Source: Patescibacteria group bacterium
Lineage (GTDB): Bacteria > Patescibacteriota > Minisyncoccia > Phycocordibacterales > UBA1550
DNA: 12,361 bases
Direction: 5' to 3'
Assembly: GCA_038061275.1 (NCBI GenBank)
Contig: JBBTZQ010000006.1
Coordinates: 1 to 12,361, forward strand
The notes under the pieces are model-generated. The model was not told the DNA's origin. It saw only the letters and a program-made list of their open reading frames with translations, and ran no database searches. The stretch's first letter is position 1. Every line of letters starts with the position of its first letter. The translations under genes and the position numbers were made by a program. Below, piece after piece: positions 1-11,038 of this stretch.

Positions 1-88
1 ATTGTTGACGGGACTATTGTGTACATTACGTACCTTAAGCGAAAAAATAAAAATCCCAATAATTAGAAAATTTGTGCAGACGATGTAA

Positions 89-514
89 CTAAGCGCATTT
101 TTTGCAAACCCCGAAAAACTCAAGGGAATGATCTTGTATAGAAGAAAACGAAACTGATTTTTTAAGAACGAGTTTTTCAAGTTCGTCGGAATCGCAGTTT
201 TTGATGTCCTCTATTTTTCCGCATTTCTTGCAGATAATATGATGATGGTGGGTCGTACCCATTGAAAGCTCATATCGCGAACCAGTTTCCCCAAGGTCGA
301 TTTTGCGTATAATTCCTGAAAGGGAGAGCGCTTCAATTGCGCGATAGATAGTCGTTTGATTCAATTTTACGGGAAGTTTTTCAGAAATCTGCTGTACACT
401 TACGGGGGAAGTGCTTTTTTTGAGGACATTTAAAATAGCGATTCTTCCGGGGGTGACTTTACTGTTTGCGCCACGGAGCGCGTCTTTGAAGTCTATTCTA
501 GGAGAAGTTTTCAT
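89..514 (-). CDS. Fur-family metal-responsive transcriptional regulator (Fur/Zur/PerR type; subtype not resolvable)
   Basis: The ORF 89..574 translation has a winged-helix N-terminus (KVTPGRIAILNVL...SVQQISEKL). It also has the HHHHIICKKCGKIEDI motif and a C-terminal CKKC, giving two CxxC pairs typical of the Fur family. I place the start at the internal ATG 514 (MKTSPRIDF...) because a good promoter (-35 544-549, -10 521-526) lies inside the 5' extension of the longer ORF. Confidence 0.85.
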   Translation of the reverse strand: MKTSPRIDFKDALRGANSKVTPGRIAILNVLKKSTSPVSVQQISEKLPVKLNQTTIYRAIEALSLSGIIRKIDLGETGSRYELSMGTTHHHHIICKKCGKIEDIKNCDSDELEKLVLKKSVSFSSIQDHSLEFFGVCKKCA

Positions 515-520
515 AAAAAA

Positions 521-549
521 ACTATACCATAAACGCAAAACACTTGCAA
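521..549 (-). promoter_or_regulatory. Putative sigma70-type promoter of the Fur-family gene (TTGCAA-17-TATAGT with TGn extension); the -10 ends 6 nt before ATG 514
   Basis: Read on the minus strand: TTGCAA (549-544), 17-nt spacer ending in TGG, TATAGT (526-521), TTTTTT, then ATG (514). No Shine-Dalgarno is present, which is consistent with a leaderless mRNA. Confidence 0.45.
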
Positions 550-573
550 TTACGCGCTCTTGTCTTTTTCCCA

Positions 574-601
574 TTGTTTTTGTATAAAAGTCTGGTATAG
601 T
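574..601 (+). promoter_or_regulatory. Putative promoter for the tRNA-Val transcription unit (TTGTTT-16-TGgTATAGT)
   Basis: -35 TTGTTT 574-579 and extended -10 TGG TATAGT 593-601. The predicted start near 608 is just upstream of the first 38-bp repeat (612). Confidence 0.4.
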
Positions 602-611
602 GTCAGGTACA

Positions 612-687
612 GGGCGATTAGCTGTCTTGGTAGGTAATAAAAGAAGGAAGGGCGATTAGCTGTCTTGGTAGGTAACAAAAGAAGGAA
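612..687 (+). repeat. Two tandem 38-bp repeats (612-649, 650-687; 37/38 identical), each beginning with the first 12 nt of tRNA-Val
   Basis: The unit is gggcgattagctgtcttggtaggtaa[t/c]aaaagaaggaa, repeated twice. It is followed directly by the genuine tRNA start gggcgattagctcagttggtagagc at 688. The first ~24 nt of each unit resemble the tRNA acceptor and D-arm with a disrupted D-stem. Confidence 0.9.
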
Positions 688-760
688 GGGCGATTAGCTC
701 AGTTGGTAGAGCAATTCATTTACACTGAAAAGGTCGGGGGTTCGAGCCCCTCATCGCCCA
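688..760 (+). tRNA. tRNA-Val (anticodon TAC), 73 nt, CCA not encoded
   Basis: Manual cloverleaf: acceptor GGGCGAT/ATCGCCC, D-arm GCTC-AGTTGGTA-GAGC, anticodon loop TTTACAC, T-arm GGGGG-TTCGAGC-CCCTC, discriminator A760, followed by CAA. Confidence 0.95.
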
Positions 761-809
761 CAATAAAAAAGAACGCACTAGGGCGTTCTTTTTTATTGTG
801 GGCGATGAG
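750..809 (+). terminator. Perfect 27-bp inverted repeat (750-776 / 783-809, loop actagg) whose left arm includes the last 11 nt of tRNA-Val; the inner part looks like a rho-independent terminator
   Basis: ctcatcgcccacaataaaaaagaacgc is exactly complementary to gcgttcttttttattgtgggcgatgag. The T-tract 789-794 lies inside the right arm. Confidence 0.7.
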
Positions 810-829
810 CAAGCAAACTGCTTTGCTTG
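810..829 (+). repeat. Small hairpin H1 (caagcaaa-ctgc-tttgcttg) inserted inside the inverted copy of the tRNA-Val 3' end
   Basis: 8-bp stem 810-817/822-829 with loop ctgc. It splits tgggcgatgag (799-809) from ggggctcgaa (834-843); together these are the reverse complement of tRNA positions 741-760. Homologous hairpins occur at 4457-4478 and 5918-5945. Confidence 0.75.
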
Positions 830-833
830 CGTA

Positions 834-956
834 GGGGCTCGAAAGGCGCAACTATATCGAGCGGAGCGAGATGGTGAGCTGGGGTCGAGAACACTTAGGC
901 TTTTGTGAACGAAGTGAAACAAAAGACTTAGTGATTCGTGACCGAGCCCGCCCACA
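834..956 (+). ncRNA. Copy V of the tRNA-linked structured module (candidate ncRNA or hairpin-type mobile element), bracketed by inverted and direct tRNA-Val T-loop/3'-end fragments
   Basis: Left bracket ggggctcgaa (834-843) is the reverse complement of tRNA 741-750. Right bracket cgagccc-gcccaca (943-956) is a copy of tRNA 743-762 lacking 6 nt. Internal helices are 845-847/878-880, 849-859/867-876 and 884-906/919-942. They match the architecture of the copies at 4296-4390 and 4658-4752, with compensatory changes. Confidence 0.45.
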
Positions 957-1085
957 AACATTAGACATGGATGCGAGAGCATCGGTGTCTTTTTGTTTGT
1001 GTGTGCGATGAGGGGCTCGAAGGACGGACGATTCCACAGAATCGCGTCGCGTACTGTCGATTAAAACGCGACGAGTATACAAGAT
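942..1085 (+). repeat. Second, partly truncated repeat unit downstream of tRNA-Val
   Basis: Components in order:
- direct tRNA-end fragment 942-956
- hairpin 963-990 (agaca/tgtct and gatgc/gcatc, loop gaga) followed by T-tract 990-994
- tgtgtgcgatgaggggctcgaa (1000-1021), matching the reverse complement of the tRNA-Val 3' end at 21/22 positions
- ggacgga (1022-1028) and gtatacaaga (1075-1084), which match the start of the Leu-locus module but are interrupted by hairpins 1029-1044 and 1045-1073. Confidence 0.6.
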
Positions 1086-1095
1086 TGTAGTTTCA

Positions 1096-1124
1096 TTGAA
1101 AAAAGTTATCGCGAATGATAGAAT
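1096..1124 (+). promoter_or_regulatory. Putative promoter of the orphan gene (TTGAAA-17-TGaTAGAAT)
   Basis: -35 TTGAAA 1096-1101, 17-nt spacer, extended -10 TGA TAGAAT 1116-1124. Confidence 0.55.
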
Positions 1125-1176
1125 AACGCCATAAACAAGAAGTTCTTTTTGATTTTATAAAAGAAGGAGGTGTCCA

Positions 1177-1590
1177 GTGCTTATTATTGAAAAAATAGAA
1201 GTTATTGTGGTGGTTTGGTTCTCCGCTCTCTTGATTTCCCTCGGGTCGTTTGGAGAATTGAAGGGTTGGCACGAACTGCGCAAGGCTGTATTTCCTTTTC
1301 GTTCACTGGAAACTTGGCGACGCAGGTTTAAAATCGTCATCTGTTACCCCATCGCTTTTTGGTTTGGGGGAGCGGAAGCTTTACGGTGGTCCAGTCCTCT
1401 CCACGAGCTATTCTTGTGGCGTGTGCGACTCCTGTGGAGGAAGCTCTGGGTTCGCGGAGATGAGTTTCATTCATCTCTCGATATGGATATTGTTGCGATG
1501 TACAACATGACGGAGTCAGAACGAGAGGTGTATGGCCGGGATCTTGTGAAAAGAAGGATTATCGCTCACGAACGGGATTTGAGTAGGTAG
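1177..1590 (+). CDS. Hypothetical protein, 137 aa, N-terminal hydrophobic helix, Trp/Arg-rich; no family recognised
   Basis: GTG start preceded by AAGGAGGT (1164-1171) at 5-6 nt spacing. It has its own promoter (1096-1124) and a clean terminator (1607-1632). Confidence 0.7.
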   Translation: MLIIEKIEVIVVVWFSALLISLGSFGELKGWHELRKAVFPFRSLETWRRRFKIVICYPIAFWFGGAEALRWSSPLHELFLWRVRLLWRKLWVRGDEFHSSLDMDIVAMYNMTESEREVYGRDLVKRRIIAHERDLSR

Positions 1591-1606
1591 GTTTCTTTAT
1601 TCAATT

Positions 1607-1632
1607 AAAAGGGGTCTACGGACCCCTTTTTT
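1607..1632 (+). terminator. Rho-independent terminator
   Basis: aaaa ggggtc tacg gacccc tttttt: 6-bp GC stem extended by A/T pairs, followed by T6. Confidence 0.85.
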
Positions 1633-1662
1633 CTTTAGTAAAAAAAGGATATTATTGCCTAT

Positions 1663-1938
1663 ATGCAAAAACGTCTCGAATGTGAGGTTGCGGGCCGAGT
1701 CCAACTAGTAATGTTCAGGGATTTTGTACAGCGAAAAGCGAGCAACCTCGGTGTTTTTGGGACTGTAAAAAATAATCCTGACGGTTCAGTATCTGTTGTT
1801 GCGGAAGGTGAAGAAGAAAAACTTAACACACTTCTCGACCTCATCCATAGAGGATCTATTTTGTCGCGCGTAGACCATGTGAAGGTTTTATGGGGGGAGC
1901 CCTTGGGGAAACATGATTCTTTTGTTATCCTATACTAA
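1663..1938 (+). CDS. acyP: Acylphosphatase
   Basis: 91 aa with the VAGRVQLVMFRDF motif (the V-x-G-x-V-Q-G-V-x-F-R signature region) and G-x-V-x-N...DGSV...EG in the typical length and order. Confidence 0.85.
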   Translation: MQKRLECEVAGRVQLVMFRDFVQRKASNLGVFGTVKNNPDGSVSVVAEGEEEKLNTLLDLIHRGSILSRVDHVKVLWGEPLGKHDSFVILY

Positions 1939-1941
1939 CTT

Positions 1942-2625
1942 ATGTCAAAGCAGTCTATTGAGTGTGTCGGTGTCATTATGGATGGCAATCGCAGGTGGGC
2001 CCGTGAAAAAGGGAAGCCCATTTTTGAGGGACACCGCGCGGGGTATGATACGCTTGCTCAGGTGGTAAAGTGGGCGCGTGAAGCGGACGTTAAAAATGTT
2101 ATTGCTTATACATTTTCTACCGAGAACTGGCAACGATCAGAAGACGAAGTCGGATATTTGCTGAAGCTCTTTAAGTTTGTTGTCGAATCGGAAGCAGACC
2201 GCATGGTTGCCGAACAAGTGCGCGTGAAGTTTGTCGGCGAGCGTGAGCGTTTCTCCAAGGATCTCCAAGAAGGAATGAATCGTATTGAAGCGATAACCGA
2301 AAAGTCTTACAAGATTACACTCTATCTCGCCGTGTCATATGGAGGACGCGCTGAGATTCTTCATGCAACAAACACACTTCTTGGAGAGGGCGCAAAGAGT
2401 GTGACTGCCGAAGAGTTTTCAAAAAAACTTTGGACATATCCTATGCCTGACCCTGACCTCATCATTCGCACTGGTGGCGTCATGCGACTTTCGGGGTTCC
2501 TCCCGTGGCAGGCTATTTACAGCGAACTCTTTTTTCTGGGGACAATGTGGCCGGATTTCTCTGAAACAGAGTTCCAAAATATACTTAAAGAATATGCTGA
2601 TCGCGAGCAGAGGCACGGTAAGTAG
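1942..2625 (+). CDS. uppS: Undecaprenyl-diphosphate synthase (cis-isoprenyl transferase)
   Basis: Motifs IMDGNRRWA, GH..G, FSTENW.R and RTGG..RLSGFLPWQ..YSE are characteristic of UppS. Confidence 0.93.
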   Translation: MSKQSIECVGVIMDGNRRWAREKGKPIFEGHRAGYDTLAQVVKWAREADVKNVIAYTFSTENWQRSEDEVGYLLKLFKFVVESEADRMVAEQVRVKFVGERERFSKDLQEGMNRIEAITEKSYKITLYLAVSYGGRAEILHATNTLLGEGAKSVTAEEFSKKLWTYPMPDPDLIIRTGGVMRLSGFLPWQAIYSELFFLGTMWPDFSETEFQNILKEYADREQRHGK

Positions 2626-2655
2626 TTTTGTTTTACATTCGCACATACTCCTATT

Positions 2656-3435
2656 ATGAATATTCCTGTTTTATATGAAGACGATGAAGTTGTCGTTATC
2701 AACAAACCCGCGGGACTCGTGGTGCATCCTGATGGGCGCACAAAAGAAGAAACGCTTGAGGATTGGATAAAGAGTGAGTACCCAAAGATAGCAGAAGCCC
2801 GTGTGGGGGAGCCAATCATTTTGACAGGAGGCGAAGAGATTCAAAAACCGGGTATCGTTCATCGTATCGACCGCGACACTTCAGGAGTCCTTATTATCAC
2901 AAAGACGCAAGAATCTTTTTTAAATCTGAAATCTCAATTTCAAGCGCGCACGATCAAGAAAAATTATAAAGCAATCGTGTATGGAGGTTTCAAAATTCCT
3001 CACGGCATAATCGACAAACCTATTGGTCGCTCAACAAGCGATTTTAGAAAATGGTCAGCTGAGTATGGAGCGCGCGGAGAGCTTCGTGAGGCAACGACGG
3101 AGTATTTTGTGAAGGGGGAAGGGAAGGCGATAGCGCAATATGAAGGGCCTTCAAAAAAGAAAAAGGGAGATGAGACGATAATACTTTCATATCTTGACGT
3201 TTTCCCACAAACAGGAAGAACTCACCAGATTAGGGTTCATTTGAAATCGATTGGGCATTCAATCTTGGGTGACAAGGTCTATGCTCCAAACTCACCTTTA
3301 GCGCTAGGTTTTACTCGCACTGCTCTTCATGCATCATCCGTGACCTTTAAAAGTTTAAAAGGCGAGGAAAAGACGATAGAAGCGCCTCTGCCAGAGGATT
3401 TTAAGCACGCTCTTGCAGAACTAGGGCTCGTGTGA
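2656..3435 (+). CDS. RluA-family 23S rRNA/tRNA pseudouridine synthase (no N-terminal S4 domain)
   Basis: Catalytic motif HRIDRDTSGVLIITK and the GRTHQIRVH motif. The N-terminus YEDDEVVVINKPAGLVVHP is typical of the RluA/RluD family. Confidence 0.9.
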   Translation: MNIPVLYEDDEVVVINKPAGLVVHPDGRTKEETLEDWIKSEYPKIAEARVGEPIILTGGEEIQKPGIVHRIDRDTSGVLIITKTQESFLNLKSQFQARTIKKNYKAIVYGGFKIPHGIIDKPIGRSTSDFRKWSAEYGARGELREATTEYFVKGEGKAIAQYEGPSKKKKGDETIILSYLDVFPQTGRTHQIRVHLKSIGHSILGDKVYAPNSPLALGFTRTALHASSVTFKSLKGEEKTIEAPLPEDFKHALAELGLV

Positions 3436-3463
3436 TAGAGTATCGGATATTTGCGAAGAACGC

Positions 3464-3898
3464 ATGAATAAAGAAATTATGGAAAATACAACGATACAAA
3501 TGAGCCCCGTAGCTACCGCAGAGCGTAAAAACCTACCTCTTCATGCAGGAGCAACCGTACGAGTTCACCTCAAGATTGAGGAAAAAGGAAAGATTCGCCT
3601 TCAGGTTTTTGAGGGTCTCGTTCTCGCAGTAAAGGGTGGCACTAGCAATGGCGCTATGTTTACTGTACGAAAGACCGCGAGCGGTATCGGTATGGAAAAG
3701 ATTTTCCCTCTCTATTCCCCAGTTATCGACAAGATTGAGATTGTGCGTCAGTCCGAGGTTCGTCGCGCAAAGCTCTATTTCATCCGCAGCAAGGTAACTC
3801 GCGAAGTGCGTCGCAAGATGCGCCACACAAAGACGGGTGTTACCGTCCCTATGCAGGAAGGAGAGATTGTCGAGGAGGTAGTTGCAAAGGCAGAGTAG
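3464..3898 (+). CDS. rplS: 50S ribosomal protein L19 (with N- and C-terminal extensions)
   Basis: The core GATVRVHLKIEEKGKIRLQVFEGLVLAVKG...FTVRK...GIGMEKIFPLYSPVIDKIEIVR...VRRAKLYFIR matches L19. Alternative in-frame starts exist at 3479 and 3500. Confidence 0.92.
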   Translation: MNKEIMENTTIQMSPVATAERKNLPLHAGATVRVHLKIEEKGKIRLQVFEGLVLAVKGGTSNGAMFTVRKTASGIGMEKIFPLYSPVIDKIEIVRQSEVRRAKLYFIRSKVTREVRRKMRHTKTGVTVPMQEGEIVEEVVAKAE

Positions 3899-3900
3899 TT

Positions 3901-4057
3901 ATACCATCCCCAACTAACCTCTTCGCATTGGCTCAAAAATATCGGCTGCGACTTTGAGAAAAATCTTTAGCGTATCTCGATATGCTTCATATTTTCCTCT
4001 TCGTCTCGCTCGAAATTTTTGAGCCAATTACGCGAAGGACTTAATTGGGGATGGTAT
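3901..4057 (+). repeat. 157-nt long imperfect inverted repeat (about 37 bp of stem) directly after the rplS stop and before its terminator; MITE-like or a structured 3' UTR
   Basis: Arms 3901-3940 and 4015-4057: ataccatccccaa...ggctcaaaaat versus atttttgagcc...ttggggatggtat. There are a few mismatches and a 3-nt bulge (4029-4031). A nested inner hairpin is at 3956-3964/3991-3999. Confidence 0.75.
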
Positions 4058-4062
4058 TAAAC

Positions 4063-4086
4063 AAAAGCGGGCGCAAGCCCGCTTTT
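4063..4086 (+). terminator. Rho-independent terminator (rplS unit)
   Basis: aaaa gcgggc gcaa gcccgc tttt. Confidence 0.8.
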
Positions 4087-4095
4087 CAGTTCCGC

Positions 4096-4124
4096 TTGAA
4101 CTTTTAGGGCTTTTAGCCTATGAT
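4096..4124 (+). promoter_or_regulatory. Putative promoter of tRNA-Leu (TTGAAC-17-TATGAT)
   Basis: -35 4096-4101, 17-nt spacer, -10 4119-4124. The tRNA starts 20 nt downstream of the -10. Confidence 0.5.
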
Positions 4125-4143
4125 GGTGAAGTTACATAAATAT

Positions 4144-4227
4144 GCCCAGGTGGCGAAATTGGTAGACGTACTACCTTGAGGTGGTAGCGCCCGCAAGGGC
4201 ATGGAGGTTCAAGTCCTCTCCTGGGCA
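4144..4227 (+). tRNA. tRNA-Leu (anticodon GAG), class II with long variable arm, 84 nt, CCA not encoded
   Basis: Acceptor GCCCAGG/CCTGGGC, anticodon arm CTACC-TTGAGGT-GGTAG, variable arm GCCC-GCAA-GGGC, T-arm GGAGG-TTCAAGT-CCTCT, discriminator A4227, followed by CAA. Confidence 0.95.
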
Positions 4228-4234
4228 CAAAATG

Positions 4235-4266
4235 AAAGGCGGAACGCGAAAAGCGTTCCGCCTTTT
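4235..4266 (+). terminator. Terminator-like hairpin T1; core of a longer imperfect hairpin (4208-4295) that pairs the tRNA-Leu T-loop/3' end with an inverted copy
   Basis: ggcggaacgc (4238-4247) / gcgttccgcc (4253-4262), loop gaaaa, flanked by aaa/tttt. Outer pairing runs 4208-4232 with 4270-4295, with two mismatches, one bulge and one G.U. Confidence 0.7.
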
Positions 4267-4276
4267 GAATTTTGTA

Positions 4277-4411
4277 GCACAGGGGAGGACTCGAAGGGCG
4301 CAGGCGGTATACAAGAAGAGCGAAGCGAGTGCTTGTCGCCGAGCCGGGGCCGAAAGTACTTAGGAGCGTAGCGACTTAGTAACTTGTGGCAAAGTCCTCT
4401 CCTGGGCACCA
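4277..4411 (+). ncRNA. Copy A1 of the tRNA-linked structured module, closed by a helix between an inverted (4277-4291) and a direct (4393-4407) copy of the tRNA-Leu 3' end, ending ACCA
   Basis: The core 4296-4390 is 83/95 identical to 4658-4752 with no gaps. Helices are 4297-4299/4343-4345, 4303-4306/4337-4340 plus 4311-4315/4332-4336, and 4349-4363/4375-4390. Segment 4393-4408 is 16/16 identical to tRNA 4212-4227. Confidence 0.5.
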
Positions 4412-4455
4412 TATAAAAAAGCTTCCGAAAGGGGGCTTTTTTATATGGTGCCCAG
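4402..4455 (+). terminator. Hairpin T2: 25-bp stem (two U.G pairs on the + strand), GAAA loop; the inner part is a canonical terminator with T6
   Basis: 4402-4426 pairs with 4431-4455. The inner stem gcttcc/gggggc is followed by tttttt (4437-4442). The outer arms are a tRNA-Leu 3' fragment plus CCA and its complement. Confidence 0.65.
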
Positions 4456-4493
4456 AGCGAATGAACTGCTTCATTCGCGCGAGAGGACTTGAA
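4446..4493 (+). repeat. Inverted copy of the tRNA-Leu 3' end split by small hairpin H2 (4457-4478)
   Basis: tgcccag (4449-4455) and gagaggacttgaa (4481-4493) together are the exact reverse complement of tRNA 4208-4227. They are interrupted by gcgaatgaa-ctgc-ttcattcgc. Confidence 0.8.
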
Positions 4494-4561
4494 GAGGTTG
4501 AGTATGTTTTTGAAAATGTAACCATTTGAAAAAATGCGAAACCTGTACCGAATCTGTAAGA

Positions 4562-4636
4562 TTCAAGATTCCTCTCCTGAGTTCAACACCAAAAACAAAG
4601 AAGCCGAACGCGAAAGCGTTCGGCTTCTTTGTTTTT
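4562..4636 (+). repeat. Degenerate direct tRNA-Leu 3'-end fragment (4562-4590) plus hairpin T3 (perfect 21-bp stem 4591-4611/4616-4636, GAAA loop)
   Basis: ttcaagattcctctcctgagttcaacacc resembles ttcaagtcctctcctgggcaca. aaaaacaaagaagccgaacgc is exactly complementary to gcgttcggcttctttgttttt. Confidence 0.75.
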
Positions 4637-4637
4637 G

Positions 4638-4770
4638 TGCCCAGGAGAGGACTTGAAAGACGGAGGCGGTATACAAGACGAGCAAAGCGAGTGCTTGTCG
4701 CCGAGTCGGGGTCGAGAGTACTTATGAGCGTAGCGAATTAGTAACTCGTGACCAAGTCCTTCGCATGCTC
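4638..4770 (+). ncRNA. Copy A2 of the tRNA-linked structured module, preceded by a perfect inverted copy of the tRNA-Leu T-loop-to-discriminator and followed by a degenerate direct copy
   Basis: 4638-4657 tgcccaggagaggacttgaa is the 20/20 reverse complement of tRNA 4208-4227. The core 4658-4752 aligns to A1. The right bracket ccaagtccttcgcatgctc (4752-4770) is decayed. Confidence 0.5.
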
Positions 4771-4815
4771 AACAAAAGTTGCCGAACGCAAAAGCGTTCG
4801 GCGACTTTTGTTTTT
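4771..4815 (+). terminator. Hairpin T4 (19-bp stem with one U.G, AAAA loop) followed by T-tract
   Basis: aacaaaagttgccgaacgc (4771-4789) / gcgttcggcgacttttgtt (4794-4812), then ttt. The core ccgaacgc/gcgttcgg is shared with T1 and T3. Confidence 0.7.
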
Positions 4816-4823
4816 GGGAGGAG

Positions 4824-4857
4824 AAAAAACTCCCCGAACGGCGTACCGTTCAGGGAG
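4824..4857 (-). terminator. Rho-independent terminator of the CDF gene (minus strand)
   Basis: On the minus strand: ctccctgaacgg-tacg-ccgttcggggag, then tttttt. The single irregular pair is G.U only on the minus strand (C x A on the plus strand). Confidence 0.75.
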
Positions 4858-4873
4858 TGAGTTTTTCAAACTG

Positions 4874-5575
4874 TTAATGATGGTGGTCGTGTCCGTGATA
4901 ATCGTGACCATGACCGAACCAAATTTTCTTCGCAGTATAGAGCATATACAGCGTGAGAATAAAGAGAAGTCCGAAGTCCATCCATTTGAGAGCCTGAGCG
5001 TAGAGCTCTTGGTCAAAAGGAAGCATTGTCCCAAGCAGAGCGAATCCTCCAATGATTGCGATGAGCCCACTATGGAACATATCGTATTTCGCGTGTGCGA
5101 TGATTGCTATTAAGCGCGGGTTAAGACCGAGGTGGTGTTTTGCCCGAGCCAGCATCTTCCAGCGGAGTGCATGAATTGCTGTTGCCAAAACGCAAACAGC
5201 GACAATCGCGAAGGGAACCACGCGGTACGTGCCTTCGGTCAAGCGCTCAACCGCATGCATACCGACCGCAACTGCTCCTATCGCAAAAACGGCGACAAGT
5301 ACTTTTATTCCGACCTTTTCGATGACATCTGAATTCCCCATCCTTCGAGCCATGATGACTGTAAAGAAGCCTAGGAAGTCCATTGATGCATCAAACAGAG
5401 CATGAAGTGCATCTGATGCTACCGCCATACTCGCGTAGTAGCCGACCGCCCATTGAACAAGTCCTGAAAAAAGAGCGAGTGTTCCCACTGCAAGATAGAG
5501 CGGAGCCTCACAGATACAAGGTGCGTTAGGTGTGGGACAATCATCGAGATGTCCCGTTCTGAGAAAGGACATCAT
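4874..5575 (-). CDS. Cation diffusion facilitator (CDF) family divalent-metal efflux transporter, membrane domain only, His-rich C-terminal tail
   Basis: Six predicted hydrophobic helices. HxxxD motifs occur in the helix-2 region (DALHALFDA) and the helix-5 region (HAKYDMFHS), which is typical of Zn-type CDF site A. The C-terminus is HGHDYHGHDHHH and the N-terminus is CPTPNAPCIC. GGAGGT (5586-5581) lies 5 nt upstream of ATG 5575. Confidence 0.85.
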   Translation of the reverse strand: MMSFLRTGHLDDCPTPNAPCICEAPLYLAVGTLALFSGLVQWAVGYYASMAVASDALHALFDASMDFLGFFTVIMARRMGNSDVIEKVGIKVLVAVFAIGAVAVGMHAVERLTEGTYRVVPFAIVAVCVLATAIHALRWKMLARAKHHLGLNPRLIAIIAHAKYDMFHSGLIAIIGGFALLGTMLPFDQELYAQALKWMDFGLLFILTLYMLYTAKKIWFGHGHDYHGHDHHH

Positions 5576-5619
5576 AGTAAACCTCCGATTGTGAAGTTAC
5601 AAAAAAGAAACCTGCCGTA

Positions 5620-5647
5620 ACTATAGCACAAAAATACCTATTGTCAA
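5620..5647 (-). promoter_or_regulatory. Putative promoter of the CDF gene (TTGACA-16-TGcTATAGT)
   Basis: Read on the minus strand: TTGACA (5647-5642), 16-nt spacer ending TGC, TATAGT (5625-5620). The predicted 5' UTR is about 38 nt and contains the SD. Confidence 0.55.
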
Positions 5648-5669
5648 TTGCTTCAAAACCTGTTACTAT
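5641..5669 (+). promoter_or_regulatory. Putative divergent promoter (TTGTCA-17-TACTAT) whose -35 overlaps the CDF -35; it would drive the leader plus tRNA-His
   Basis: -35 5641-5646, 17-nt spacer, -10 5664-5669. I could not find a better promoter closer to tRNA-His. Confidence 0.4.
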
Positions 5670-5786
5670 GGATTGATATTCAAGGAGGGCTCGACACATG
5701 CGACCCTTTTCTGATATAACAGATGAACCAGAATTTTTTGATTGACCAACAAAACTCTGGAATTTGTGTTTGTGGGTATATAACAT

Positions 5787-5859
5787 GGTGGCTATGGTGT
5801 AACGGTTAACACTAGAGCTTGTGGAGCTCTCAATCAGGGTTCGATTCCCTGTAGCCACC
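5787..5859 (+). tRNA. tRNA-His (anticodon GTG) with genome-encoded G-1 and C73, CCA not encoded
   Basis: G-1 (5787) pairs with C73 (5859). Acceptor GTGGCTA/TAGCCAC, anticodon arm AGAGC-TTGTGGA-GCTCT, T-arm CAGGG-TTCGATT-CCCTG. Confidence 0.95.
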
Positions 5860-5866
5860 CAAGAAC

Positions 5867-5900
5867 AAAAAAGACCAGCATTGGAATGCCGGTCTTTTTT
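5867..5900. terminator. Bidirectional rho-independent terminator between tRNA-His (+) and the small membrane protein gene (-)
   Basis: aaaaaagaccagcatt-gg-aatgccggtctttttt, with A6/T6 on both sides. The single A x C mismatch on the + strand becomes G.U on the - strand. Confidence 0.75.
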
Positions 5901-5917
5901 GTGCTCTCTTCGGGGGT

Positions 5918-5945
5918 GGAGCAAGCAAGCTATTTTGCTCGCTTC
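5918..5945 (+). repeat. Small hairpin H3, homologous to H1 downstream of tRNA-Val
   Basis: gagcaagcaa (5919-5928) is identical to 807-816. The stem is 5918-5928/5935-5945 with one mismatch. It is preceded by gggggtgg (5912-5919), which mirrors the tRNA-His acceptor end ccaccc. Confidence 0.6.
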
Positions 5946-5951
5946 GTATCA

Positions 5952-6101
5952 CTAAAGAATCTTTTTATCTTTTATAAATTTTGCCAACATAAGGCTAATT
6001 GCTATAGCGAGAAGAATATGGATGAATCCGCCGATGGTGTAAGATGTGATCAAGCCGAGGAGCCAGAGAATAATTAAGATGACTGCAATTCTGGTTAACA
6101 T
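5952..6101 (-). CDS. Small (49 aa) lmo0937-family-like two-helix membrane protein; below the ORF-track length cutoff
   Basis: Minus-strand translation is MLTRIAVILIILWLLGLITSYTIGGFIHILLAIAISLMLAKFIKDKKIL. The ILWLLG...GGFIHILL pattern matches my memory of the lmo0937 family. It is followed by the terminator 5867-5900. No obvious SD. Confidence 0.6.
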   Translation of the reverse strand: MLTRIAVILIILWLLGLITSYTIGGFIHILLAIAISLMLAKFIKDKKIL

Positions 6102-6183
6102 AAAATTAATTGGTTAAAGTAGTATGGCCACTTAATGCCATTAGCCAAATTCAGTATAGCACGCCTAAGATTTACAAATTATT

Positions 6184-6498
6184 ATGAAAAACATCACCCC
6201 TGCTGAAGCCGACAAAATTTTGAAGGAAGATAAGAATGCGATACTTGTTGATGTGCGAACGAAAGACGAGGTGTCTGAAATTTCTGTTCCTGACGCAAAG
6301 CACATTCCGCTTGATGAACTTGCTGGGCGCCTCGGAGAAATTAAAAATTTTTCACACGTCCTTTTTCTCTGTCGTTCGGGGGGACGAAGTGCTGAGGCTT
6401 GCTCAATCGCAGAATCAGCAGGCTTTTCAAACGTAATGAATGTGGCGGGCGGGATTATTGCATGGGAGAAGGCGGGACTCCTTGTGGCAAAGGGATAG
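6184..6498 (+). CDS. Single-domain rhodanese-like sulfurtransferase
   Basis: ILVDVRTKDE...IP, active-site loop CRSGGRS, and the C-terminal GGIIAWEKAG motif. Confidence 0.88.
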   Translation: MKNITPAEADKILKEDKNAILVDVRTKDEVSEISVPDAKHIPLDELAGRLGEIKNFSHVLFLCRSGGRSAEACSIAESAGFSNVMNVAGGIIAWEKAGLLVAKG

Positions 6499-6526
6499 TG
6501 TGGCATTATATAGACAGTGAGAAATT

Positions 6527-6556
6527 TTGTGAATAACGCATTATTCAGGTTATACT
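6527..6556 (+). promoter_or_regulatory. Putative promoter of uppP (TTGTGA-18-TATACT); the -10 ends 7 nt before the ATG
   Basis: -35 6527-6532, -10 6551-6556, then gaatttc and ATG 6564. No SD. Confidence 0.4.
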
Positions 6557-6563
6557 GAATTTC

Positions 6564-7352
6564 ATGGATACACACCTCATTTCTATATCGGTCATTGAGG
6601 GGCTGACAGAATTTTTGCCAATTTCTTCTACTGCGCACCTCATAATTGCAGCAAAACTGTATGCCGTAGATCTCACTGATGCATATATTAAATTCTACCT
6701 GCTGTTCATTCAGCTTGGAGCTCTTGCCGCGGGCGTTTTTATTTTTGCCAAAAGGATATTCACGGACAGAACACTTTTTGTAAATATTTGCATCAGCTTT
6801 ATCCCGAGCGCTGCTATCGGTTTTCTGTTCTATAAATTATTCAAAAAATTGCTCGAAGGCAACATGCTCGTGCTTGCGCTCGCACTTCTAATCGGCGGTA
6901 TCATATTCATTTATCTCGAAAAGGTGTTTATGCGAAAGGGGGGCATCGAAAACATACAGGATTTCGGCAAGAGTGAGATAACAAAGACAGATGCCTTCAT
7001 TGTGGGACTCGCACAAGCGGTAGCAATCATTCCTGGTGTTTCTCGCTCGGGTGCGACCATTGTTGCAGGTATCCTTCGGGGGATTAAGAGAGAGGTTATT
7101 TTCGAATATACGTTCATTTTGGCGCTTCCTACGCTAGGGGTGGCGGTTCTCTATGATGCGTACAAATCGAGGGACATGCTTTCAAGCATCAACTCATATG
7201 GAGATTTGCTCCTTGGTTTCGCGGTGGCATTTGTAGTCGCAAGTATAACTCTTTTCATTTTGAAAAAATATCTTTCAAGAATATCGCTTACATTCTTTGG
7301 TTGGTATCGCATTATCCTCGCTTTTTTCGTACTCGCTTTCTTTGTTATATAA
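6564..7352 (+). CDS. uppP: Undecaprenyl-diphosphate phosphatase (BacA/UppP)
   Basis: Motifs GLTEFLPISSTAHL and PGVSRSGATI in a polytopic membrane protein of typical length (262 aa). Confidence 0.93.
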   Translation: MDTHLISISVIEGLTEFLPISSTAHLIIAAKLYAVDLTDAYIKFYLLFIQLGALAAGVFIFAKRIFTDRTLFVNICISFIPSAAIGFLFYKLFKKLLEGNMLVLALALLIGGIIFIYLEKVFMRKGGIENIQDFGKSEITKTDAFIVGLAQAVAIIPGVSRSGATIVAGILRGIKREVIFEYTFILALPTLGVAVLYDAYKSRDMLSSINSYGDLLLGFAVAFVVASITLFILKKYLSRISLTFFGWYRIILAFFVLAFFVI

Positions 7353-7371
7353 TTGGTAGTACAATGAGAAT

Positions 7372-7773
7372 ATGAAACACGGATTTAAAGAAAATATTGA
7401 AAAGCTGACGCTCGAAAATTCAGACTTTCGGCACATTCTCTATACAGGAGAACATTCTCAGCTCGTACTCATGTCGCTTCTTCCGAGAGAGGAAATCGGA
7501 CTCGAAACGCACGAAGGGATTGATCAATTTTTTCGATTTGAGCAAGGGCAAGGAAGAGTAATCATTAACGACGTTACATACGATGCCGCTGATGGAGATG
7601 CAATAATCGTTCCATCTGGCTCACAACACAATGTTATCAATATGTCTGATACGACAGACCTCAAATTTTACACGATATATTCTCCTGCACATCACAAGGA
7701 CGGTATGGTTCGCAAGACAAAGACGGAAGCAGAAGCAAGCGACCCAGAGTTCGAAGGTAAAACGACAGAATAG
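7372..7773 (+). CDS. Cupin-domain protein (cupin_2 type), function unknown
   Basis: ETHEGIDQFFRFEQGQG...GDAIIVPSGSQHNVIN shows the two cupin motifs. The length is 133 aa. Confidence 0.85.
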   Translation: MKHGFKENIEKLTLENSDFRHILYTGEHSQLVLMSLLPREEIGLETHEGIDQFFRFEQGQGRVIINDVTYDAADGDAIIVPSGSQHNVINMSDTTDLKFYTIYSPAHHKDGMVRKTKTEAEASDPEFEGKTTE

Positions 7774-7830
7774 CGATGCTCACACTTAGCGAATGCCATA
7801 CAAGGACGACTGTGAACGCTTGAAATAAAT

Positions 7831-8922
7831 ATGTTTGAAAATGTTAAAAATTTTTTGACCGCGCACCAAAGAGTGGCGTCTTTTTCTGCTATTTTTTTAG
7901 GATTCATTGTGGACAGCCTTACGCTTCCGCGCGTTGATGTTCTGTGGGGAAATATTCTCCTCCTCTTCTATATTGTTGTTGCGGCAACGAGCATATACTT
8001 CATCAATTTAGGGTATTATGCGAGAACGAAAAGCGCGATACAGGAACGCATGATGCCGTTTCTTCCTTTTCTTATACAATTTTCATTTGGCGCTCTTTTT
8101 AGTGGTTACTTTATTTTTTATGCACGTAGCGCCTCTCTCGGAGCGAGCACAATATTCTTGCTCATGCTTGTAGTACTCCTTTTTGGTAATGAATTCTTTA
8201 AGAGTCGTTATCAGAGACTCGAATTTCAAACGAGCATATTGTTTTTGGCAATTTTCTTCTTCGCAATATTTTATACTCCTATCGTCATGAAAGAGATTGG
8301 CGCGAGTGTCTTTATCTTGAGCGGTGTCGTGAGCCTACTCATCATCGGCGTTTTTTTATTTTTTGTCTCGCGCGCTCTGGGCCAAGCGTTTTGGAGTATA
8401 GAGAAGGTAATATTCAGAAGCATACTCGGGGTATATTTATTCTTAAATATTCTGTATTTTACAAACATAATTCCTCCCATCCCGCTTTCGCTTAAAGAAT
8501 CAGGTGTTTATCATAATCTTGTAAAAACGACGGACGGGACGTACCTTGTATTGTCTCCGCATCACGCATGGTATGATCTCAAGGAAATATATTATCCGGT
8601 GTTCAAGCGATATCAAGGTGAGCCAGCTTACTTTTTCTCGGCGGTGTTTTCGCCTACAGACCTTAACACAAAAGTCTTGCACGAGTGGCAGTATTTTGAT
8701 GAAGAAAAAAGAGAATGGACAACGACTGACAGATTGCGTATGGAGATTATCGGTGGGCGCGAGGGTGGATATCGAGGATACTCGATGAAGCAAAGCTTGG
8801 TTCCCGGAAATTATCGAGTAAACGTAGTGACTTTACGCGGACAGATTCTCGGTCGCACGAACTTCAGTGTAATTAATGTCGCCGAGAAGCAAAATCTTGA
8901 GATGAGAACACTTGGGGAGTAG
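7831..8922 (+). CDS. Polytopic membrane protein with a C-terminal soluble domain resembling DUF2914
   Basis: About 7 hydrophobic helices in the N-terminal 210 aa. The C-terminal HEWQYFDEEKREW...IIGGREGGYRGYS...PGNYRVNVVTLRGQILGRTNFSV resembles the DUF2914 pattern from memory; this family assignment is unverified. Confidence 0.8.
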   Translation: MFENVKNFLTAHQRVASFSAIFLGFIVDSLTLPRVDVLWGNILLLFYIVVAATSIYFINLGYYARTKSAIQERMMPFLPFLIQFSFGALFSGYFIFYARSASLGASTIFLLMLVVLLFGNEFFKSRYQRLEFQTSILFLAIFFFAIFYTPIVMKEIGASVFILSGVVSLLIIGVFLFFVSRALGQAFWSIEKVIFRSILGVYLFLNILYFTNIIPPIPLSLKESGVYHNLVKTTDGTYLVLSPHHAWYDLKEIYYPVFKRYQGEPAYFFSAVFSPTDLNTKVLHEWQYFDEEKREWTTTDRLRMEIIGGREGGYRGYSMKQSLVPGNYRVNVVTLRGQILGRTNFSVINVAEKQNLEMRTLGE

Positions 8923-8970
8923 CATTTTTTCATCGTCTATATTTGGTTTTGGTGACAGCGTCTATATGAT

Positions 8971-9837
8971 ATGATTAGAATCATGAAGACATTTTTTGAA
9001 ACATTCACAAAGACGATATATGACCCAGCATTTTACAGGAGTGTTGCAGAAGCTCCACTAAAAGAAGCTTTGGTTTTTTATGTAAAGGTCGCGTTGTTCC
9101 TCGCAACAGTAATGACCATTATTTTCACGATCGTTCTCGTACCGCAGGGAATACGTTTTGTTAAGGAGCGCGCGCCAATCTTGGTAAAGCAGTATTACCC
9201 AGAACAGCTTGTGGTAAGGATAGACAAAGGCGAGGCCTCAGTGAATGTTTCCGAACCGTATATTGTATTAAATAAAGCAGAAGCGCCACAGGCGATGAGC
9301 GAAAAACCGGTAAAAAACCTAATCGTCATCGACACCCGAAGCGATTTTGAAACTAAAAAATTCAATGAGTACGACACTTTTGCGCTTCTTACAAAACATG
9401 AGTTTGCCACAAGGGATGATAATGGAAAGATAACAATACAGAACTTGAGCGGATTTCCTTCGGTTGTTATTGATCAAGCAAAACTTCTTTCGTGGGGTGA
9501 AAAGATTATGAACTCGCTCACCGTAGTTGTTCCTCTTGGAATCACCCTCACTCTGTTCCTGCTTTTTATGGGGTTTATAATATACATCATCCCGCTTCTC
9601 TTGTTTGCCCTAATTCCTTATTTTGTGGCGAAGCTAAAAAAGATGTCGCTCACCTACAGCGGTGCATACAAAATGAGTCTGTATGCAGTAGTTCCTGCGC
9701 TCGCGCTCAAAACACTTTTGAACATCAGTGGATTTATGTTTATTCCTGCATATTTCACTCTTCTCATCTTTATTCTTATCGTTACACTGAACATGCGCGA
9801 AACAGAGCCAGAGCAGTCAAAATTATTTGAGAATTAG
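8971..9837 (+). CDS. Polytopic membrane protein, DUF1189-like
   Basis: The N-terminus FFETFTKTIYDPAFYRSV followed by a TM helix, a central soluble segment and C-terminal TM helices resembles DUF1189 (YvdJ-like) from memory. An alternative start exists at 8983. Confidence 0.8.
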   Translation: MIRIMKTFFETFTKTIYDPAFYRSVAEAPLKEALVFYVKVALFLATVMTIIFTIVLVPQGIRFVKERAPILVKQYYPEQLVVRIDKGEASVNVSEPYIVLNKAEAPQAMSEKPVKNLIVIDTRSDFETKKFNEYDTFALLTKHEFATRDDNGKITIQNLSGFPSVVIDQAKLLSWGEKIMNSLTVVVPLGITLTLFLLFMGFIIYIIPLLLFALIPYFVAKLKKMSLTYSGAYKMSLYAVVPALALKTLLNISGFMFIPAYFTLLIFILIVTLNMRETEPEQSKLFEN

Positions 9838-9843
9838 AATATT

Positions 9844-9864
9844 TTCAAAACACCCGCTTTTGAA
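9844..9864. terminator. Weak AT-rich hairpin between convergent genes (possible bidirectional terminator)
   Basis: ttcaaaa-cacccgc-ttttgaa, a 7-bp A/T stem with no strong GC core. Confidence 0.3.
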
Positions 9865-9867
9865 TTA

Positions 9868-10308
9868 TTAAGAGGGTAGAGAGGTCTTTCGGTAAATCAT
9901 TACAGCGAGGATAAAAAGAAGAGCAGAGACCCCCGCAGAGACGAGACAGAAGATACAAAATGCTTTTATGACAAATGCTTGTAGATACACAAAGTATGCA
10001 GACGAAATGAATCCGAGCGTTGCGATGGGGAGAATAAGTCGCGCGAAAAGAACTCTTTTGGTATCGAGATAAAGAATTGCGAGAAATCCGATAATCAAAT
10101 AAAACGCCATGCCGTACGCTGAAAGAGGAATGCCAAGGAATGCCGAATATGGAGATTTGTCCACAGTGTCACACCCAGAGAAGCCCAAGGCGCAAGGGAT
10201 AGGCGCTCCAGATAGGCGTTTAGCGAGGAGGTAAGACGAGTCGGCAAAGCCGATGAATGAAAGGAGAATAATAGACCCGATCAAAAATGTCGAAAGTCGT
10301 TTATCCAT
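9868..10308 (-). CDS. Vitamin K epoxide reductase (VKOR) family membrane protein (DsbB-type function)
   Basis: Loop cysteines C..GFSGC and SPYS..GIP, plus the CIFC (CxxC) motif in the last helix region. About 4 hydrophobic helices. Confidence 0.88.
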   Translation of the reverse strand: MDKRLSTFLIGSIILLSFIGFADSSYLLAKRLSGAPIPCALGFSGCDTVDKSPYSAFLGIPLSAYGMAFYLIIGFLAILYLDTKRVLFARLILPIATLGFISSAYFVYLQAFVIKAFCIFCLVSAGVSALLFILAVMIYRKTSLPS

Positions 10309-10960
10309 TAGATTCGGCGACAGCAGACTTTATGAGCGCTTTAAATTCATCAGGGCTTTTTGGGTTCGCCATTTTTTTGCCATTCAAATAAAATGTAGGG
10401 GTTGAGCTGATGCCGGATTTTAGTCCTGTCTCTTTGTCATGCTCTACTGCATCTTTGGTTGCTTGGGAGTCGCGGTCTGATTTAAATTTCGCAATATCGA
10501 GCTTGAGTTCGGTTGCGTATCCTTCAAATATTGATTCTGCGGTCGTGGAGTCCGACCAATCGTTTTGGTGTTCAAAGATGAGTCGATGCATTTCCCAGAA
10601 TTTACCCTGGGTCCCTGCTGCTTCTGATGCATATGCTGCGGCGAGGGCATTTTTGTGCTGGGGAAGAGGAAAATGTCGGTACGTGAAAGTGAGATTACCC
10701 TCGTTTTCTTTCAAAACTTCTTCAACAACAGAATGATAATATCCACATGCAGGGCATTGGAAGTCGCTGTATTCAACGAGAGAAACTGTTGGCAGGGAAG
10801 CACCTTTTGTCCACTCATCCGAACCGACTTGTTCAGAAAGAGTTCCAGTGGTTACGCGAGCAGGCTTTTCTCCTGTGGCAATTTGCCATACGGCGACAAT
10901 CGTAATACCCACAATTAATAACGAAGAAACCCAAATAATGACCCTTTTTTGTGTATCCAT
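10301..10960 (-). CDS. DsbA-family thiol:disulfide oxidoreductase with N-terminal membrane anchor
   Basis: Thioredoxin-fold CPAC active site (YSDFQCPACGYYH) and an N-terminal TM helix. The stop overlaps the VKOR start by 8 nt (ATGGATAA). I prefer ATG 10960 (MDTQKR...) over the TTG at 10978 used by the ORF track. Confidence 0.88.
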   Translation of the reverse strand: MDTQKRVIIWVSSLLIVGITIVAVWQIATGEKPARVTTGTLSEQVGSDEWTKGASLPTVSLVEYSDFQCPACGYYHSVVEEVLKENEGNLTFTYRHFPLPQHKNALAAAYASEAAGTQGKFWEMHRLIFEHQNDWSDSTTAESIFEGYATELKLDIAKFKSDRDSQATKDAVEHDKETGLKSGISSTPTFYLNGKKMANPKSPDEFKALIKSAVAESNG

Positions 10961-11038
10961 AATAGAGCATGATAACAATGTTAATGGAGTAGAGCAAGCC
11001 TATTCGCCCACAAGGATGTTTTCGTGTACAATAATCCC

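Follow-up and report, generated by a model that had tools for sequence, protein, structure and literature searches.

Folded cores between copies of host-gene ends: an apparently undescribed family of non-coding elements behind tRNA genes in Patescibacteria

The 12,361-nucleotide (nt) stretch of Patescibacteria contig JBBTZQ010000006.1 (assembly GCA_038061275.1, positions 1 to 12,361) analyzed here, hereafter the window, carries a tRNA-Val and a tRNA-Leu gene, each followed on the same strand by copies of a small repeated module, which belongs to a large and apparently undescribed family of folded non-coding elements of Patescibacteria (candidate phyla radiation, or CPR, bacteria). The original prediction, made from the letters of the window, took a ~95-nt core as the repeat unit and paired two copies of it, A1 and A2, behind tRNA-Leu. 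The core is real and the two copies are homologous, but a unit of a second family (B-type) sits between them and the full unit is larger, with host-derived arms and a terminator copy. Each core is enclosed by host-gene sequence: the 5′ arm (I) carries the host gene’s 3′ end (S) in reverse complement, the arm 3′ of the core (D) is a direct copy of that end and often runs on into a copy of the trailer and terminator, and arm I is separated from the host gene by a terminator-like hairpin (T). A unit thus reads T (rarely an open reading frame, ORF, with its terminator), arm I, Y-shaped core, arm D. At tRNA-Val the resulting order is S, T, I, V, D, T′, I′, truncated module, and at tRNA-Leu it is S, T1, I1, A1, D1, T2, I2, B, D2, T3, I3, A2, D3, T4:

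688-761, plus strand: host tRNA-Val(TAC), called by ARAGORN and by the Rfam tRNA model (68.4 bits); its S, from T loop to end, is 741-762 and is copied in the arms
763-796, plus strand: terminator-like hairpin T of the Val locus, the tip of the palindrome made by S, T and the inverted arm (repeat I4, arms 750-779/780-809, 97% complementary)
797-843, plus strand: inverted arm I of the Val locus, reverse complement of the tRNA-Val 3′ end, split by a hairpin H (810-830), with 13 nt (831-843) to the core
844-942, plus strand: A-type core V, Y-shaped, with a 3-base-pair P1, P2 and a long P3; covariance-model match 829-956, 108.6 bits
943-956, plus strand: direct arm D of the Val locus, which copies the tRNA-Val 3′ end but has 5 nt deleted, and which pairs with I as helix P0
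957-1000, plus strand: terminator-like hairpin past the Val unit, stem 970-983, then a T run
1000-1090, plus strand: another inverted arm (1000-1021, reverse complement of the tRNA-Val end, nearly perfect; repeat I2) and a truncated module-like stretch (GGACGGA..., GTATACAAGA) without P3, D arm or covariance-model match
4144-4228, plus strand: host tRNA-Leu(GAG), called by ARAGORN and Rfam; its S is 4208-4228
4233-4267, plus strand: terminator-like hairpin T1, from the terminator scan
4273-4295, plus strand: inverted arm I1, imperfect reverse complement of the tRNA-Leu 3′ end
4296-4390, plus strand: A-type core A1; covariance-model match 4281-4404, 76.9 bits
4391-4410, plus strand: direct arm D1, copy of the tRNA-Leu 3′ end (direct-repeat family D4)
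4411-4446, plus strand: terminator-like hairpin T2; D1, T2 and I2 make a perfect palindrome with 21-base-pair arms 4402-4422/4435-4455, 100% complementary (repeat I12)
4447-4493, plus strand: inverted arm I2, split by H (4458-4477), whose loop is AACTGCTT as in the Val copy and whose stem covaries
4494-4560, plus strand: B-type core (...AACCTGTACCGAATCTGTAA), of the second family, unrelated to A and without a match to the A model
4561-4587, plus strand: direct arm D2, degenerate copy of the tRNA-Leu 3′ end (direct-repeat family D4)
4590-4637, plus strand: terminator-like hairpin T3, related to T1 and T4 (inverted repeat I11, direct-repeat family D2)
4636-4657, plus strand: inverted arm I3, which matches the reverse complement of the tRNA-Leu 3′ end perfectly (repeat I5, 94% complementarity across 31 nt)
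4658-4752, plus strand: A-type core A2; covariance-model match 4643-4766, 88.0 bits
4753-4773, plus strand: direct arm D3, in which the copy of the tRNA-Leu 3′ end is most degenerate
4771-4812, plus strand: terminator-like hairpin T4, the end of the array (inverted repeat I22)

A1 and A2 are both 95 nt long and agree at 83 of 95 positions without a gap, and eight of their 12 differences form the four compensatory pairs originally described: C4350:G4389 in A1 becomes T4712:A4751 in A2, A4354:T4385 becomes G4716:C4747, G4363:C4375 becomes T4725:A4737, and G4298:C4344 becomes A4660:T4706. When 12 random substitutions are simulated on the A1 fold, four or more compensatory pairs arise in none of 20,000 trials and three in 0.02% of them. 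The more diverged third copy proposed behind tRNA-Val likewise holds up, with its 108.6 bits coming from a covariance model that was not trained on it. Its further swaps relative to A1 (G4356:C4383 to A891:T935 and T4357:A4381 to C892:G933) and the shared irregularities, namely a G.T followed by an AxG mismatch, a bulged A and a TxT mismatch, are as first reported, and the helices then proposed reappear in minimum-free-energy folds. Single-sequence folding z-scores are weak (-0.4, -1.8 and -2.4), with no convincing value for A1 or A2 under either RNA or DNA parameters; support for the fold therefore rests on comparison between copies and not on folding energy.

Such comparison can draw on many copies elsewhere. 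A degenerate 22-nt motif covering the 5′ strand of the long helix (GAGYNGGGGYCGARARYACTTA), scanned against one genome per species for 185,579 species, finds the core at at least 119 loci. Among the matches listed, all taxon-named records but one are Patescibacteria, with Saccharibacteria, Paceibacterota and Nomura-, Kaiser-, Yonath-, Wolfe-, Campbell-, Zambryski- and Lloydbacteria represented; the lone exception is a metagenome-assembled genome labelled ‘Patiriisocius’, whose neighbour genes cluster with those of Patescibacteria loci. We aligned 34 copies, derived their consensus fold and built from it a covariance model (R1) with A1 and A2, and not V, in the seed. R1 recovers exactly three copies in the window, V ahead of A2 and A1, and 154 + 21 = 175 copies in the ~0.9 Mb of fetched loci (L-numbered below). 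In the window only the plus strand is matched, the best minus-strand score being 7.9 bits, which bears out the claim of a strand-specific, conserved structured element. The module was also said to match no known RNA family, and Rfam 15 agrees: at the gathering score it finds only tRNA in the window, and with E-values up to 10 the cores are overlapped only by generic hairpin (miRNA-type) noise, far below threshold. Nor is there by eye any hammerhead, twister, pistol or hepatitis delta virus-like core, so that known RNA families can be rejected; neither Rfam nor a full-text literature search holds a prior description of the module. A tRNA gene, pseudogene or tRNA-like RNA is rejected too, as the units are called neither by ARAGORN nor by the Rfam tRNA model and have their T-loop sequence paired in P0, and no ORF is conserved across the cores, in keeping with the earlier view that none covers the module.

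The consensus fold is Y-shaped and comprises P0, the helix formed by the flanks; P1, three base pairs in which RRC pairs with GYY; P2, a variable hairpin; two unpaired G; and P3, a long hairpin (GGUCGAGAGUACUUAG ... CUUAGUAACUCGUGACC). P3 contains a G.U pair, found in 140 of 150 copies, next to an AxG mismatch, and also has a bulged A and a UxU mismatch. In 150 homologues, 94.3% of the cells assigned to pairs are paired, against 75.5% after shuffling, and double-change cells number 729 against 198, with double changes at 26 of the 27 pairs. None of 500 shuffles reaches the observed value on any of five measures, and sliding the 3′ partner by 1-3 columns lowers pairing to 30-39%. The 150-copy alignment was fitted to the model, which favours structure somewhat, and the margins are large. 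Covariation so far above these controls establishes a conserved single-strand fold on the plus strand. It does not make the folded strand RNA: of the original wording, ‘structured RNA or hairpin-type element’, the structured element stands, whereas action at the RNA level is not established, and the mobile-like reading developed below corresponds to the hairpin-type alternative.

The arms trace back to the host gene. Downstream of 93 module-bearing tRNAs, 61 show an inverted copy of the tRNA end and 58 a direct one, compared with 4 of 93 upstream control regions in each case. Two arm classes occur, the first reaching up to the T loop (..GGACTCGAA / CGAGTCC..) and the second covering the last few tRNA bases and the start of the trailer. 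In many copies the hairpin H splits arm I, its loop often AACTGCTT and its stem covarying, and the distance from H to P1 is fixed at 13-14 nt in both classes. Folded as single-stranded DNA, S, T1 and I1 together (4206-4295) form a very strong hairpin (-36.3 kcal/mol, z = -11.4). D often runs on as an exact copy of S, trailer and terminator, and direct repeats therefore flank I and the core; they can be as long as 41 nt or more over host 3′ end, trailer and terminator (in comparisons of at most 45 nt), with copies of 41-45 nt at loci L074, L076 and L089 and an exact 47-nt copy of S, trailer and terminator at L011. A tRNA pseudogene with an insertion in the T loop would not look like this, since the T loop and 3′ strand recur in the 5′ arm as their reverse complement, and that reading also fails because copies at non-tRNA hosts obey the same arm rule. 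A primer-binding site for mature tRNA is likewise rejected, because the inverted arms extend into the complement of the genomic trailer and not into TGG, the complement of CCA, and because trailer sequence lies inside the D copies. D1 does read GCACCA at 4405-4410, like a mature CCA-tailed tRNA, where the tRNA-Leu gene has GCACAA; this CCA (4408-4410) is isolated, no other D arm observed showing CCA where the host gene lacks an encoded one, and is probably due to chance.

The module was described as lying downstream of tRNA genes, which is usually so: among 150 aligned copies, 87 start less than 100 nt and 112 less than 400 nt downstream of a same-strand tRNA, under 20 isotype names (all amino acids save Met, plus Ile). 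Seen from the tRNAs, 102 of 158 in the fetched loci have a module within 400 nt, as do 8 of 11 in loci not picked for the module. But transfer-messenger RNA (tmRNA) and the 3′ ends of protein genes serve as hosts as well. Four copies follow tmRNA and have arms copied from its end, arms taken from the end of the coding sequence occur at an ftsZ-like C-terminus (four loci) and at an rpsI-like gene, and a topA-like host shows a 77-nt duplicate across its stop codon. The module is always sense to the host gene. With tmRNA and protein genes among the hosts, the rule thus concerns conserved, expressed genes and their 3′ ends, not tRNA as such.

The scaffold also houses other cores. The second family, B-type, reads tcgaa-AAGGTT...hairpin...AACCTGTACYGA-NNNN-TGTAA-NNNN-TCGA between the same I and D arms. 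A regular expression detects 25 copies, and for 20 of these a tRNA on the same strand lies less than 600 nt upstream; the family is also present at L051 (~660-745), L018, L079 and L095. At least two more core types exist, for example at L070/L040 and L008/L097.

Copy number turns over at single loci. The orthologous rplS-tRNA-Leu locus holds no unit in L126, one in L124 and L128, two in L127 and three in the window, in relatives (L124, L126-L128) whose L19 protein is 85-89% identical, and core subtypes differ among these loci. In 62 of 71 cases the closest full-length core at another locus has a tRNA of another isotype as its neighbour, and one pair of cores that are 90% identical neighbours tRNA-Gly in one genome and tRNA-Tyr in another; near-identical cores at different tRNAs mean that cores and arms have separate histories. 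When D and S are compared for likeness to the reverse complement of I, D is the closer at 4 of 45 loci and the less close at 22, and at L079 I agrees with the local ftsZ-like codons while D carries synonymous differences, a pattern that would fit S and I travelling together, with D as the displaced resident end. Some units carry genes: the L051 array runs tRNA-Ser, a 162-amino-acid ORF, I-core-D, a 267-amino-acid ORF, I(H)-core-D, and both of its D arms are the tRNA-Ser end. Within this cargo (L051 3062-4717) the 267-amino-acid ORF has an ART-PolyVal ADP-ribosyltransferase domain, of a kind typical of mobile elements, and the 162-amino-acid ORF has no Pfam match.

Host-derived arms, non-tRNA hosts, copy-number turnover and cargo ORFs together point to a mobile, cassette-like element. 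The reading we favour, tentatively and at somewhat under even odds, is that the module is the core of a small, non-autonomous, non-coding cassette whose core folds as a single strand. Its anatomy, conservation, strand specificity, host range, turnover and loop chemistry can be read directly from the loci; we infer mobility by recombination, a single-stranded-DNA state and an enzyme acting in trans. A circular single strand with a folded hairpin as attachment site would integrate into a matching chromosomal site. The core would be recognised as a folded single strand, DNA likelier than RNA, by an enzyme encoded elsewhere, the arms would provide the match to the target, insertion would leave the tRNA, tmRNA or protein gene with its 3′ end restored, and units could then pile up in tandem. 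The order S, cargo, S′, core, S is the exact leftover of circular-single-strand integration, and it is on this account that the cassette reading is preferred.

Known systems offer partial parallels. Integron attC arrays share the tandem order of core site, cargo, inverse core, variable or structured centre and core site, which the Leu array and L051 reproduce on one strand as S, cargo or T, I, core and D; they also share a one-strand hairpin fold with conserved mismatches and extrahelical bases, and a unit placed at the 3′ end of the cargo. In the module, however, the centre is conserved and the arms vary with the target, the reverse of attC. The arms differ from locus to locus and are 10-25 nt copies of host 3′ ends, with no R″ and R′ boxes (RYYYAAC ... 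GTTRRRY), the anchoring site lies within a tRNA, tmRNA or protein gene, and most units carry just a terminator hairpin as cargo. No intI integrase gene with an attI site lies adjacent, as judged by the absence of any recurrent neighbouring protein family.

Likewise similar in integrated order (site, genome, inverted site, spacer, site, equivalent to S, cargo, I, core, D) is attP(+) of CTXphi, which integrates by XerCD at dif and whose inverted target-like sites ~90 nt apart fold as a hairpin. The module differs in being an element of ~180 nt and not a phage, in targeting many genes and in having as its ~95-nt spacer a conserved structured core. By eye, without a search by dif model or consensus, neither arms nor core show a dif-like XerC/XerD motif, and the arms, being tRNA, tmRNA and coding-sequence ends, have no common motif by eye beyond the tRNA T loop. 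Repetitive extragenic palindromes and bacterial interspersed mosaic elements (REP/BIME) and the palindrome-associated transposable elements (PATEs) with IS200/IS605 hairpin ends are likewise short, non-coding, strand-specific DNA hairpins with conserved irregularities, numerous per genome and found at the 3′ ends of genes. HUH enzymes specific for single strands mobilise them in trans, and their cleavage and target sites are defined in part by base pairing. These elements, though, use fixed short target motifs (4-5 nt) without target duplication, whereas module units are flanked by direct repeats of 12-77 nt, and they have no counterpart to the 20-nt host-specific inverted and direct arms; among the genes neighbouring modules we see no RAYT or TnpA gene. 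Miniature inverted-repeat transposable elements (MITEs) do not describe the module, whose terminal inverted repeats (I and D) differ with the host gene while the interior is conserved. Islands that target tRNA and tmRNA genes (tycheposons, phage-like integrases) also insert at 3′ ends with regeneration of the gene, leave the displaced end as a direct repeat, and form tandem arrays with cargo. They differ in being kilobases long, in encoding or needing an integrase with one fixed target, and in lacking an inverted arm beside a structured core. The module is thus of a kind with attC, attP(+) and REP-type elements and is set apart by its conserved centre with target-derived arms and by its targets.

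Several points weigh against a mobile cassette. We know of no recombination system in which the arms differ at every target, and of no way to re-specify the arms when a core moves to a new host gene; several unrelated core families of the same design would also be odd for the recognition site of a single recombinase. No recombinase, transposase or reverse-transcriptase gene recurs beside the modules, the biggest neighbour family reaching only 8 of ~107 loci, and cargo-bearing units are rare (1-3 of 150). Strict core-motif scans of 2.9 million viral contigs and a BLAST search of the Leu array against plasmid and phage collections give no match. The loop statistics set out below are an indirect sign of DNA, and an RNA explains the sense orientation and the terminator copy at the end of each unit equally well. 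The viral, plasmid and phage searches lead us to reject a phage or plasmid origin. Clustering of 853 neighbouring ORFs yields no recurrent protein family, the largest families by Pfam (PilM, T4SS-pilin, RuvX, HSP20, Ddl and L19) being housekeeping or pilin genes, and an element-encoded protein is rejected on these grounds. T4SS-pilin paralogues lie beside module-bearing tRNA-Trp at seven loci (L019, L026, L010 and L036 among them), and one of them is fused to a Peptidase_M15 domain.

The strongest competitor, which we take seriously but consider less probable than a mobile cassette, is a co-transcribed structured non-coding RNA, made by read-through from the tRNA, tmRNA or mRNA promoter, in which I pairs with D. 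At tRNA hosts the I:D helix would mimic stacked acceptor and T stems, with H at the branch point of the D and anticodon arms, much as in tRNA-like scaffolds of the mascRNA type or engineered tRNA scaffolds. By this analogy it could recruit RNase P and RNase Z, which with the CCA-adding enzyme could excise and stabilise the core as a small RNA, the arms being an evolutionary by-product of local duplication. Invariable sense orientation and closeness to the host suit such an RNA (87 of 150 copies within 100 nt of a tRNA end), as do the strong covariation on the plus strand only, the one invariant G.U, the position of H at the acceptor/T-stem boundary in tRNA-host arms and the high share of tRNAs with a module (102 of 158 and, in unselected loci, 8 of 11). 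Several structured cores in one scaffold are likewise what several payload RNAs would give. The likeness to tRNA is nonetheless limited: in the module a continuous helix replaces the T loop, copies at non-tRNA hosts have no tRNA likeness, the ftsZ-, topA- and rpsI-like arms included, and the distance from H to the core is fixed also where the arms cover the trailer, so the mimicry may be incidental. Moreover, an orthologous tRNA may have anything from none to three copies, and the module is therefore not required for expression of the tRNA.

The loops argue in the same direction, being GNA triloops in place of GNRA or UNCG. In 293 apical loops we count 135 triloops, with 94 GNA, 80 of these C(GNA)G, against three GNRA and no UNCG; the first hairpin after the same tRNAs, presumably an RNA terminator, gives 52 tetraloops in 85 loops, with nine GNRA, two UNCG and four GNA triloops. 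As DNA, GCGNAGC mini-hairpins have an extraordinary stability that drops considerably in the RNA version; they are found at single-stranded-DNA priming sites and phage N4 promoters (PMC13037366). The wobble pairs had been read as a sign of RNA, and that argument survives for the single invariant G.T of P3 (140 of 150 copies), but outside this pair G.T/T.G fills 102 cells and A.C/C.A 56, an excess of only ~1.8-fold. Modules are placed behind one to three terminator-like hairpins and have no promoter of their own: the only promoter-like site in the region is that of tRNA-Leu (4096-4124), and none lies between units of the Leu array. Together, loop chemistry, wobble counts and the absence of promoters favour a single-stranded-DNA fold without being decisive.

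A bolder relative of the cassette, and in our judgment an unlikely one, would make the arms functional guides, and the module a new class of nucleic-acid-programmed insertion element in Patescibacteria. The folded ~100-nt core would recruit a trans-acting enzyme, a 13-20 nt target-complementary arm, copied on the other side, would direct insertion to the 3′ ends of conserved genes, and each event would renew the arms from target sequence. If true, Patescibacteria would have a natural system of guide-directed, protein-light integration that differs from integrons, from IS110 bridge RNAs and from TnpB- or CRISPR-associated transposition.

Less probable again, to the point of being improbable, is a retro-element resembling short interspersed nuclear elements (SINEs), in which a reverse transcriptase would copy the core RNA and switch template to abundant transcripts at their 3′ ends, after which the chimeric complementary DNA would recombine into the locus through the copied host sequence and leave a sense core between host-3′-end copies. 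The constant sense orientation at 3′ ends of highly expressed genes would follow, as would D arms that often reach the end of the terminator T run (as at L011). The D copies contain trailer, so their source would be precursor or genomic sequence and not mature tRNA. Set against this, no reverse-transcriptase gene is found near modules, the end of the duplicate is not always that of a transcript (at L089 it is the stop codon), the inverted arm needs an extra snap-back step, and there is neither a poly(A) tail nor a CCA signature. We give as little credence to a passive by-product, by which template switching would extend tRNA terminators into palindromes kept as strong terminators or processing barriers with the core as a stable hairpin spacer: coreless S-T-I palindromes do exist (L126 and after tRNA-His in the window), are extremely stable and add a terminator with every unit, but the core is near-invariant in sequence across distant Patescibacteria lineages, recurs almost identically at unrelated host genes, and shows conserved mismatches, a bulge, a G.T and covariation at 26 of 27 pairs, beyond anything that a spacer would demand.

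The coreless site in the window comprises two features:

5788-5860, plus strand: tRNA-His, called by ARAGORN
5906-5960, plus strand: remnant after tRNA-His, a degenerate inverted arm with an H-like hairpin at 5921-5943, which repeat I23 ties to 808-830

Between 5862 and 5960 a terminator hairpin is followed by the arm, with no core, D arm or covariance-model match, and the site after tRNA-Leu in L126 similarly consists of S-T-I(H) only. Both may be remnants or ‘empty’ sites. Other repeats accompany the host genes. Between the stop codon of rplS and its terminator, a 157-nt imperfect palindrome (3901-4057) is bounded by terminal inverted repeats ATACCATCCCCAACTAA... The relatives L124-L128 lack this palindrome, it is found only in contigs of the same population, and it looks like a separate MITE-like hairpin insertion. 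Directly upstream of tRNA-Val, two 38-nt tandem repeats (611-686) each open with ~27 nt that are a diverged copy of the start of that tRNA, and their spacers differ in a co-occurring strain (L122). Behind the inverted arm downstream of tRNA-Val, the truncated A-like 5′ part is followed by a 137-amino-acid ORF (1177-1590) without a Pfam match. In the relatives L124, L126 and L127 the tRNA-Val lies on the opposite strand and this ORF is absent, which suggests an inversion or insertion at the tRNA-Val array. Within the source population, four contigs with an identical L19 protein have the same sequence or end inside the array, and same-population assemblies L121, L122 and L123 stop ~75-350 nt after rplS, within or just before the tRNA-Leu array; this suggests that module repeats fragment metagenome assemblies at tRNA loci.

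In practical terms, the element breaks assemblies at tRNA loci, gives rise to spurious ORFs (such as minus-strand 4209-4412) and merits annotation. Patescibacteria make up a large share of bacterial diversity and have tiny genomes thought to be poor in repetitive or mobile DNA, and yet a structured element with sibling families follows about two thirds of their sampled tRNA genes, in addition to tmRNA and some essential protein genes. If the module acts as RNA, few unassigned RNA families of bacteria would be as widespread; if it is instead a mobile cassette, its conserved centre and target-derived arms would represent a new attachment-site design and open a new route of gene flow in Patescibacteria.

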